Assembly (NCBI GenBank): GCA_963772655.1
Contig: CAVYYE010000003.1
Location: 2,801,341 to 2,865,340, forward strand
Direction of reading: 5' to 3'
DNA: 64,000 bases
DNA from: an uncultured delta proteobacterium
GTDB lineage: Bacteria > Myxococcota_A > Polyangia > Haliangiales > Haliangiaceae
Shown: positions 44,747-45,900 of the stretch, in pieces
How the letters are laid out: every line of letters starts with the position of its first letter
Numbering within the stretch: the stretch's first letter is position 1
Program-made: the position numbers and the translations under genes
Notes under the pieces: generated by a model
Database searches by the model: none
What the model was told of the DNA's origin: nothing
Seen by the model: only the letters and a program-made list of their open reading frames with translations

Positions 44747-45835
44747 TCAGCGGGTCAGGTGGACCACCGAGGCGCCCGCCGGGGTCGCGATCGCGCCCGC
44801 GACGGTCGCCCACGACACCGACGTGGTGTCCGCGAAGTAAGGAGATACGACCTGTTGCACGATCGCGTCGGTGGTGGTGACGACAAACGCGGGTTGGCCC
44901 GTCGCATCGGTCGGGGCGGGGAACGCGAACAGTCCGGCCCCGCTGGCGAACCGGGTCGAGACTCCGCCGGCGCCCTCGAGCACGACCACCACGCCCTTGG
45001 CGGCGAGCAACGCGTCGATCGTCGGCTGGTACGCCGCACCGAGATTCTCGGCCGCGGTGCCGTCGCCGGTCTGCGGATCGACGATCAAGACGTCGATCCC
45101 GATCGGGGCATCGCCCGGTGCGGGTAGCGCCACCGCGTGCCACGGCCGACCGAGCTCGGTCATCGACGCGGTGATCGCCGCCCCCACGCCCGCCCGCGCG
45201 GCCGACGTGGCCGTGCCCGCGAGACGGGCGATCGCGACATCGTGGGGAACCGCGAGCGAGACGCTGTTGCCGAGCACGCGCGCCATCGCCTGGTTGTGCT
45301 GGACGTAGTCGTGGCCGATCGCGATCACGTGACCGGACAGCTCGCCGGCACACGCGCCGGCCTGGCAGATGCCGCTCTCGCAGGCGTGACCGCATGCGCC
45401 GCAGTTCAGCGGATCGCCGGTGACGTCGAGGCAGGTACCGCCGCATGACTGCTCCGGCGCGACGCACACGCTCGCGTCGAGGCCCGCGTCGCTCGCGCCG
45501 CCGTCGATCGCGCCGTCGGGCGCTCCGTCGATCGCTCCGTCGATCGCACCGGCTCCGGCATCCATGTCGACGACCCGACCGCCGGTGCCGCCGATCCCGC
45601 CGAGCTCGGCGTCGGAGCCCTCGATCCCGGGAGCCGCGTCCGGACCGAACCGCTCGACGCACGTGCCGTCGGTCATCTGATAGCCGGGCGCGCACGGCCC
45701 GTCGACCAGCGAGCTACAGCCCGCCAGGATCGCGATCAGTCCGACGACGACGACCGAACCGATCGACCGGTTGATCGTGGCGCGACGTCGCTGCCTCGGT
45801 CGACCTCCCGGCTGGGTGCCCGCTCGCGACGTCAT
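44747..45835 (-). CDS. Cys-rich lipoprotein carrying conserved leader MTSRAGTQPGGRPR
   Basis: Leader, then signal/lipobox SIGSVVVVGLIAILAGC. C..GG.C.D...DPLNCGACGHAC Cys-rich repeat. Start assigned to the proximal repeat copy. An alternative ATG at 45895-45898 overlaps the ompA-like stop. Confidence 0.65.
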   Translation of the reverse strand: MTSRAGTQPGGRPRQRRRATINRSIGSVVVVGLIAILAGCSSLVDGPCAPGYQMTDGTCVERFGPDAAPGIEGSDAELGGIGGTGGRVVDMDAGAGAIDGAIDGAPDGAIDGGASDAGLDASVCVAPEQSCGGTCLDVTGDPLNCGACGHACESGICQAGACAGELSGHVIAIGHDYVQHNQAMARVLGNSVSLAVPHDVAIARLAGTATSAARAGVGAAITASMTELGRPWHAVALPAPGDAPIGIDVLIVDPQTGDGTAAENLGAAYQPTIDALLAAKGVVVVLEGAGGVSTRFASGAGLFAFPAPTDATGQPAFVVTTTDAIVQQVVSPYFADTTSVSWATVAGAIATPAGASVVHLTR

Positions 45836-45900
45836 GGTTGCTCGACGTCGCTTCCTCGGTCGACCTCCCGGCTGGGTGCCCGCTCGCGACGTCATGGCCA
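45781..45900. repeat. 60-bp perfect-core tandem duplication (2 copies) of the gene-junction element also present at 27409..27446
   Basis: 45781..45840 and 45841..45900 differ at about 4 positions. Core ggtcgacctcccggctgggtgcccgctcgcga(c/a)gtca is identical to the 27409..27446 copy. Confidence 0.85.

Follow-up and report, generated by a model that had tools for sequence, protein, structure and literature searches.

Why does a lipoprotein gene begin with two nearly identical copies of one short sequence, each opening with its own ATG, at the very point where the preceding gene ends? The question is raised by a tandem array of two 60-nt units near position 45.8 kb of a 64,000-nt stretch of DNA from an uncultured member of the Haliangiaceae (Myxococcota; GenBank assembly GCA_963772655.1, contig CAVYYE010000003.1, positions 2,801,341 to 2,865,340); this whole stretch is referred to below as the window. 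The array lies on the minus strand, at the junction between an OmpA-family gene and a gene for a Cys-rich lipoprotein (lipoprotein 1). Our answer, which we consider probable on balance, is that the array consists of two copies of a short dispersed repeat, similar in layout to the interspersed repetitive units of mycobacteria (MIRUs), that sits on NTGA stop/start overlaps and is translated into the n-region cleaved from lipoproteins.

Two in-frame units at a stop/start overlap

At 45783-45897 Tandem Repeats Finder detects an array of period 60 that comprises 1.9 copies, with 98% matches and a score of 223. Set in start-codon register, the two units (Table 1) are identical at 56 of 60 positions, with mismatches at unit positions 43, 54, 57 and 60. 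This agrees with an earlier sequence-only reading of the same stretch, which had described two adjacent 60-bp units of about this identity and two in-frame leaders with the translations given in Table 1; the span assigned there, 45781-45900, covers the feature but lies about 5 nt off the codon register. Both units open with ATGA and both are in frame with the lipoprotein gene. A single ATGA (45895-45892) contains the distal ATG (45895-45893) and, overlapping it, the TGA (45894-45892) that ends the OmpA-family gene, and the proximal ATG precedes the signal peptide, since unit 2 runs in frame into INRSIGSVVVVGLIAILAGC, followed by SSLVDGPC; both relationships had been noted from the letters alone. 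The lipobox Cys is encoded at 45718-45716, and between the proximal ATG and this codon there is no in-frame ATG, GTG or TTG. Lipoprotein 1, if made, therefore requires the translation of at least one unit.

The two ATGA tetranucleotides, which the sequence-only reading had both proposed as coupled starts, do not have the same surroundings. Coupling is predicted only at the distal ATG, where a GGAG motif lies 7 nt upstream and where the stop codon is one that is really used, and to that extent the proposal stands. The proximal ATGA has no Shine-Dalgarno sequence at a usable distance, and no open reading frame (ORF) ends there unless the first TGA is read through; for the OmpA frame it is a second in-frame stop. 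It may act as an internal start, a role that is unsupported. The public annotation of lipoprotein 1 (P0001, 362 aa) nevertheless begins at the proximal ATG. Profile matches of the protein are to Stig1 and C_rich_MXAN6577 (residues 142-186), with a marginal Fe-S match at residues 165-237, and no Pfam or NCBIfam model, those for twin-arginine translocation (Tat) signals included, matches the leader (first 60 residues) at E <= 0.1. A Tat signal was considered and rejected: the RRRATI motif is weak, is missing from a third copy of the unit described below (RSR) and has no profile match.

Assemblers now and then collapse or expand short tandem repeats wrongly, and the sequence-only reading had named an assembly artefact, in which a true single unit was duplicated by the assembler, as the finding that would refute it. 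The source organism was found in a single sample only, and the check relied on an independent de Bruijn assembly, the Logan contigs of run ERR11594398 at k = 31 (PMC12424806). The contig carrying the OmpA gene terminates at unit-1 position 28, and the contig carrying lipoprotein 1 and a DUF3127 gene starts at unit-2 position 13. In a k = 31 graph simulation on the window, the two-unit arrangement yields exactly both of these ends, whereas deletion of either unit shifts the predicted ends, to an OmpA contig that finishes ...GGGAGGTCGA and a lipoprotein contig that begins CGAGCGGGC.... Because the observed ends fit the two-unit prediction and no other, and because four positions differ between the units, the array is not an assembly artefact; the chance that a single true unit was duplicated in silico is very small.

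Further copies in the window

A 42-nt core of the unit occurs three times in the window, against 0.00 occurrences expected from shuffles, which bears out the claim of a recurring junction element. The third occurrence belongs to a full-length unit (unit 3) at 27.4 kb (locus 2, the array at 45.8 kb being locus 1). Its GTG (27446-27444) overlaps the TGA (27445-27443) of an upstream 404-aa gene within GTGA (27446-27443), and GGAAGG lies 7 nt 5′ of the start, matching the spacing of GGAG at 45.8 kb. The unit is followed directly by a 12-nt partial repeat of its own head, whose leading ACG stands at the expected start-codon position, and locus 2 thus holds 1.2 copies of the 60-nt unit to the 2 copies of locus 1. 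There is no other start codon at either locus. The two downstream lipoproteins are unrelated.

The public annotation of lipoprotein 2 (P0090, 369 aa) places the start at an ATG inside the gene (MPPPDGG...), which would remove both signal peptide and lipobox; the start was probably mis-called owing to the GTG start of the unit.

A profile search identified a partial copy (c4) at a third gene junction, where 0.02 matches with three or fewer mismatches are expected by chance. An alpha/beta-hydrolase gene ends immediately 5′ of it with TAA (22366-22364), so that there is no -4 overlap, and the spacer in which it lies leads to a pyruvate-kinase-like gene with which it is out of frame. Three gene junctions within 24 kb consequently bear the element, and all copies are on the gene strand (minus, between minus-strand genes) and adjoin a stop codon. 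Two subtypes can be distinguished, T6 being common to unit 3 and c4 and G6 to units 1 and 2.

Table 1. Coordinates of the repeat units, their copies and the genes that they adjoin
Feature	Position in window	Strand	Remarks
Unit 1 (distal), 60 nt	45836..45895	-	encodes MTSRAGTQPGGRPRKRRRAT; start-codon register
Unit 2 (proximal), 60 nt	45776..45835	-	encodes MTSRAGTQPGGRPRQRRRAT; start-codon register
GGAG Shine-Dalgarno-like motif	45903..45906	-	7 nt 5′ of distal ATG, inside 3′ end of OmpA-family gene
OmpA-family gene, upstream	45892..46986	-	PF00691, E = 3.6e-16; stop is the TGA in the unit 1 head
Cys-rich lipoprotein gene (lipoprotein 1), from distal ATG	44747..45895	-	similar to Stig1 (PF04885) and MXAN_6577-like proteins
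Ancestral signal peptide INRSIGSVVVVGLIAILAGC	45716..45775	-	in-frame continuation of unit 2
Predicted hairpin of unit 1	45844..45893	-	8-bp terminal inverted repeat; GACGTCGC (positions 3-10) pairs with GCGACGTC (45-52)
Unit 3, 60 nt	27387..27446	-	encodes VTSRAGTQPGGRPRTRSRAT; 53/60 identical to unit 1
ACGACGTCGCGA	27375..27386	-	directly after unit 3; 11/12 match to unit head ATGACGTCGCGA; then signal peptide LAIAVALEAIGLAGAAC
Lipoprotein 2 gene	26190..27446	-	fused in frame to unit 3; unrelated to lipoprotein 1; "beta-propeller, YncE-like" per one source
404-aa gene, upstream at locus 2	27443..28657	-	stop codon inside unit 3 head
Partial copy c4, GACTTCGCGAGCGGCCACCCAG, 22 nt	22342..22363	-	unit positions 3-24, 21/22 match
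22-nt unit head pattern			GAC[GT]TCGCGAGCGG[GC]CACCCAG

Filled and empty sites

Homologues of lipoprotein 1 were found in Kofleriaceae and in other metagenome-assembled genomes of Myxococcota and metagenomes. The leader is missing from all 87 that were listed, except for the source genome's own copy. Most of them open with a short signal peptide (M-x-R, a hydrophobic stretch and Cys), and several start MNRS or VNRS, aligning to INRS here. The ompA-lipoprotein gene pair is conserved, with a 4-nt overlap of the called genes in the relatives' loci L015, L017, L019 and L020; in L016 the lipoprotein frame opens with a GTGA at the ompA stop, and the gene caller's start lies 158 nt further downstream. 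In L019 and L020 the orthologue has a short signal peptide and begins at the NTGA overlap itself. The junction of L019 reads caGTGAACCGGTCT, and its GTGAACCGGTCT is identical at 10 of 12 positions to ATCAACCGGTCG, which follows the array here. Because ATCAACCGGTCG aligns in this way with the L019 start, the ATC at 45775-45773 is the former start codon of lipoprotein 1.

At locus 2 the leader is missing in 74 of the 75 homologue N-termini inspected, the 75th being the source's own truncated annotation P0090, and nearly all full-length homologues have short signal peptides. The closest relative of lipoprotein 2 (in L018, 75% identical) starts caATGATCTCGG, at an ATGA with a 4-nt overlap with the upstream gene; the codon at that start position is ACG here. 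The L018 hydrolase-kinase spacer aligns with that of the source but lacks the 22-mer beside the stop codon. Judged from these alignments, all three loci are filled here and empty in relatives (L019 and L020; L018 for two loci), and the 4-nt overlaps in L015, L017, L018, L019 and L020 point to stop/start coupling as the ancestral state.

The gene order around lipoprotein 2 (lipoprotein 2, beta-lactamase, hydrolase, pyruvate kinase) is conserved with L018. A 1052-aa ORF on the minus strand (22364-25522) is mostly a shadow of a plus-strand ORF (23408-25468, GC content at third codon positions (GC3) 0.93), which is syntenic with a 678-aa beta-lactamase-family gene of L018; only its C-terminal ~330 codons, the alpha/beta hydrolase, are likely to be real.

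The start region of lipoprotein 1 is also expanded in relatives, in frame, between the NTGA overlap and the signal peptide. In L016 (1739-1918) a 36-nt direct repeat (92% identical) duplicates the start region (ATGATCGAGATGATC) at a distance of 144 nt, and a further 162 in-frame nt lie upstream; L015 (4861-4960) has ~96 extra nt compared with its close relative L020 (3001-3045). Across the clade, insertions thus seem to have struck the n-region of lipoprotein 1 repeatedly, and this region appears permissive whatever the source of the insert. Homology of the unit with the Arg-rich n-region of the L017 orthologue (MSAVRQPPRRDRGARARSA) was considered as well, but the DNA does not align by eye.

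Composition, variation and predicted folding

The GC3 of the units is 0.55-0.70, compared with 0.87-0.94 in five neighbouring genes (binomial P = 0.0002-0.02), and the units are enriched in locally rare codons (CGA four times, plus AGG, GGA, GGT and CGT). By both measures the unit is unlike native coding sequence. Substitutions among the copies are mostly synonymous, with a ratio of nonsynonymous to synonymous differences (pN/pS) of 0.16-0.30, which is consistent with in-frame reading of the unit. The last 18 nt hold all four mismatches of units 1 and 2 (P = 0.006 under a uniform distribution), while unit positions 2-42 are almost invariant, third codon positions included. Differences clustered in this way suggest that the core is constrained or homogenised, or that the units arrived separately; a recent slip followed by neutral drift fits poorly. 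The sequence-only reading had taken the duplication as a signature of slipped or recombinational activity at this site. A fresh slip should have left identical copies, although slippage or unequal exchange is still a possible origin of the second unit.

The consensus fold is a hairpin closed by positions 3-10 (GACGUCGC) and 45-52 (GCGACGUC), and the same arms are found in units 2 and 3. U6-A49 takes the place of the G6-C49 pair in unit 3, a compensatory change, and the substitution of A44 by C gives a ninth pair; the chance of one such double change among seven random differences is 0.03. Because stem pairing is kept, two of the three amino-acid changes of unit 3 find an explanation. We regard the evidence for the hairpin, drawn from modelled folds, as suggestive only.

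Searches for the element elsewhere

No Rfam match was obtained in the window at gathering thresholds, nor at E <= 1 in 45700-45960, and promoter and terminator scans gave no signal. When 185,579 representative genomes, a set without the source genome, were scanned with a degenerate-codon DNA pattern, the 12 matches were single, scattered over unrelated phyla and consistent with chance. The same holds for the one match of an exact 20-mer in the Joint Genome Institute (JGI) metagenomes, which lies in L014 and has 24 nt in common with the unit, without head or tail. A profile of the unit (nhmmer) run against the loci of relatives found only the source's own Logan contig and chance matches. At the protein level, a word-indexed search with three concatenated leader units returned nothing, even though P0001 holds the exact peptide, this kind of search being insensitive for short queries. 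A HMMER search of the 40-aa tandem leader against 1.84 billion representatives gave P0089 as its sole match, an unrelated repetitive protein; single-copy leaders fall under the threshold of this search, so that it is little informative.

Comparison with known small repeats

MIRUs measure 40-100 bp, frequently stand in tandem and separate co-directional genes, whose orientation they share, the ends of their ORFs overlapping the genes on either side; insertion is believed to take place at start codons with -4 coupling kept, empty sites being found in M. leprae, and the units have direct repeats of a tetranucleotide as well as imperfect inverted repeats, terminal and internal (PMC12548453; PMC3184786, both citing Supply et al. 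1997). The 60-nt unit falls within this size range, can occur in tandem, lies between co-directional genes in gene orientation and overlaps the upstream stop by 4 nt at its own start (ATGA, GTGA). It too gives filled and empty sites between relatives, and has inverted repeats and tetranucleotide direct repeats, the latter imperfect here. The two also differ: the mini-ORFs of MIRUs stop on the next start, in a ribosome relay, whereas the 60-nt unit is 0 mod 3, has no stop and makes an N-terminal fusion. MIRU units were reportedly described by Supply et al. in 1997 as 77 and 53 bp long, both 2 mod 3. On account of its length (0 mod 3) and its fusion with the protein downstream, the present unit is classed apart from MIRUs. 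There are 3 loci here, in a 64-kb window, against about 40 for MIRUs, and the hosts are Myxococcota rather than Actinomycetota; the likeness is one of layout, sequence homology being unlikely given the phylum.

Small repeats fused in frame to genes, 5′ gene extensions included, are known from the Rickettsia palindromic elements (RPEs) and from other repeats (Ogata 2000 and Croucher 2011, among others, as covered in a review, PMC3184786). Like an RPE, the unit is a short palindromic repeat that is translated in its host protein and would be tolerated in a permissive region. RPEs are 100-150 bp long and insert within mature protein regions; the 60-nt unit, in contrast, occurs only at a stop/start overlap and in a cleaved n-region, and the mature protein is predicted to be unchanged.

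With miniature inverted-repeat transposable elements (MITEs), repetitive extragenic palindromic (REP) sequences and bacterial interspersed mosaic elements (BIMEs) the unit shares its small size, a terminal inverted repeat or hairpin, an intergenic location in transcription units and several copies per genome. The terminal inverted repeat expected of a MITE is present (8 bp, GACGTCGC/GCGACGTC), with complementarity kept in unit 3 by the double change described above. A target-site duplication is not clear, the flanking repeat being 4 nt long and imperfect at locus 1 but 12 nt long at locus 2. The copies are co-oriented with the genes, and the full-length units are coding and in frame, which is untypical of REPs and MITEs. 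A slippage minisatellite, or variable number tandem repeat (VNTR), would likewise show two head-to-tail copies and a period that is a multiple of 3, with copy-number changes safe for the frame, but the copies here are non-identical, their differences lie in the 3′ third and the unit also stands at other loci.

Possible origin and propagation of the units

If the units are a dispersed repeat that occupies NTGA overlaps, their presence at 45.8 kb can be explained in steps that draw on the usual coupling of termination to reinitiation and on the Lgt/LspA pathway of lipoproteins. The native junction would have been a 4-nt stop/start overlap with a Shine-Dalgarno sequence 7 nt upstream, inside the preceding gene. 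The unit brings its own (A/G)TGA at the native distance from this Shine-Dalgarno sequence; it would thus supply or keep the NTGA at the junction, and the upstream gene would continue to terminate there. A ribosome terminating on the TGA of the unit head could then re-initiate on the overlapping ATG or GTG, and coupling would survive the insertion; the same ribosome would already have melted the 5′ arm of the hairpin, which begins at the G of the start codon. Because the unit length is a multiple of 3, with no stop in the downstream frame, translation would run on into the old gene. The old start codon would have become dispensable, and it has mutated at both loci, to ATC at locus 1 and ACG at locus 2. 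One or two units would add 20 or 40 Arg-rich residues to the n-region, at +6 or +7 charge per unit, and signal peptidase II would remove the whole leader at the lipobox Cys. With the leader cleaved the mature lipoprotein would be unchanged and the insertion tolerated, which is perhaps why both full-length loci precede lipoprotein genes. The second copy at 45.8 kb might have arisen by slippage or unequal exchange between short direct repeats flanking a single unit, or else by a second insertion into the same ATGA.

A wider version of this explanation holds that the units belong to a self-propagating, previously undescribed family of translated leader cassettes in this uncultured Myxococcota lineage, a frame-preserving counterpart of MIRUs that targets NTGA overlaps, brings its own stop and start, uses the n-region as a safe harbour, expands in tandem and replaces native starts. 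We put this forward tentatively and would sooner bet against it.

Several observations weigh against a dispersed and mobile repeat. The four copies stand at three loci that all lie within one 64-kb window, so that dispersal as a family and mobility are extrapolations from that window, and no copy was found in the representative genomes or the JGI metagenomes searched. No transposase, REP-associated tyrosine transposase (RAYT) or other mobilising gene was seen in the window, where no systematic transposase search was made. The flanking tetranucleotide direct repeats are imperfect (ATGA...ATGA...ATCA and GTGA...ACGA), and the flanking repeat of 12 nt at locus 2 suits microhomology-driven copying as well as transposition. 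The lipoprotein 1 relatives in L015, L016 and L017 bear long, unrelated n-region extensions, and the Arg-rich leader could therefore be partly native to the gene. Initiation at the distal ATG is itself inferred from the spacing of the Shine-Dalgarno sequence and from the overlap. The folding energies, -23 to -27 kcal/mol, do not differ significantly from those of shuffled controls (z = -0.3 to -1.6), and neither is that of the array significantly below its controls; the covariation amounts to one pair among three sequences.

A serious rival, although we judge it unlikely, is a purely local event without any repeat family: the 60 nt would be the native 5′ end of one gene, slipped in tandem and copied to neighbours on the same strand by microhomology-mediated template switching or gene conversion among the three loci. 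The source could be lipoprotein 1, as its relatives too have n-regions that are long and basic, or else the gene at 27.4 kb, which starts much like ATGACGTCGCGA. All copies do lie within 24 kb on one strand, a 12-nt direct repeat, (A/G)TGAC(G/T)TCGCGA, flanks the 48-nt insert at locus 2, the orthologues in L017 and L015 show long n-regions, and no copy was found in any other genome or metagenome searched. Native origin is harder to reconcile with a GC3 so far under that of the neighbouring genes, or with orthologues in L019 and L020 that start at the NTGA overlap with short signal peptides, where ATCAACCGGTCG matches the native start. The clustering of the differences between units 1 and 2 is unlike a recent slip, the G6 and T6 subtypes are each common to two copies, and c4 is a head-only fragment in a non-coding spacer.

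The near-invariance of the core, even at third codon positions, beside a variable tail suggests a different alternative, that the unit is not selfish but a selected cis-regulatory element, either an mRNA structure or a protein-binding site, which sits at internal operon junctions and ties expression of certain envelope lipoproteins strictly to upstream translation, or co-regulates them; the Arg-rich peptide could in that case be a functional targeting or regulatory leader. The compensatory change that keeps the stem, the pN/pS below 1 and the location of both full copies before lipoprotein signal peptides, with a Shine-Dalgarno sequence at 7 nt, would all fit. The unit is, however, missing from all orthologous operons and hence dispensable for their expression, its folding energy is unexceptional, the Rfam, promoter and terminator searches and the Pfam and NCBIfam models (Tat included) found nothing in it at the thresholds given above, and c4, a head only, precedes the gene of a cytoplasmic enzyme. 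We consider selection for regulation the less probable of these two alternatives, and a short dispersed repeat on NTGA overlaps, translated into the n-region, the explanation to be preferred.

Should the repeat prove to be genome-wide, small repeats that colonise start codons with coupling kept, until now essentially a mycobacterial curiosity, would have a second and phylogenetically independent example. The solution would also be a different one, a fusion in frame with a part of the signal peptide that can be discarded, where MIRUs relay ribosomes through mini-ORFs. Such a case would bear on how selfish DNA comes to neutral landing sites in gene-dense genomes, on the migration of start codons and on the N-terminal extensions of secreted proteins. 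An event that is only local would reduce the array to an ordinary duplication, with modest interest. Gene callers are misled by such repeats: of the two public annotations, one begins at the proximal ATG and the other at an internal ATG, with loss of the signal peptide. The repeats could also serve as VNTR-type strain markers.

Other features of the window

Positions 25529-25596 hold four copies of the palindromic GTTATAAC(G), which make up a 32-nt inverted repeat (88% complementary, with 4 nt between the arms) inside a spacer of lower GC (0.55); it looks like an operator or other protein-binding array. At 25623-26097, downstream of the lipoprotein 2 gene, 31-nt inverted repeats (90% complementary) surround ~475 bp. 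The short ORF enclosed, MKGENIATRLLVFGAGVV...KHIARQLVRAA..., appears frameshifted and resembles four-helix-bundle proteins of the kind associated with 23S rRNA intervening sequences; the segment may be a small mobile insert. Two small genes away from the lipoprotein/DUF3127 cluster, a 1550-aa ORF (38870-43522, plus strand) with an HExxH motif (LEHELTHVVQQ) and an eCIS_core match (PF13699) in precomputed Pfam annotation may encode a large toxin- or effector-like protein. Two further coding repeats are a tandem array of three 99-nt copies at 10591-10887, 69-77% identical, and a dense 9/24-nt array of the GCACTCGGC type at 56513-56733 on the plus strand.

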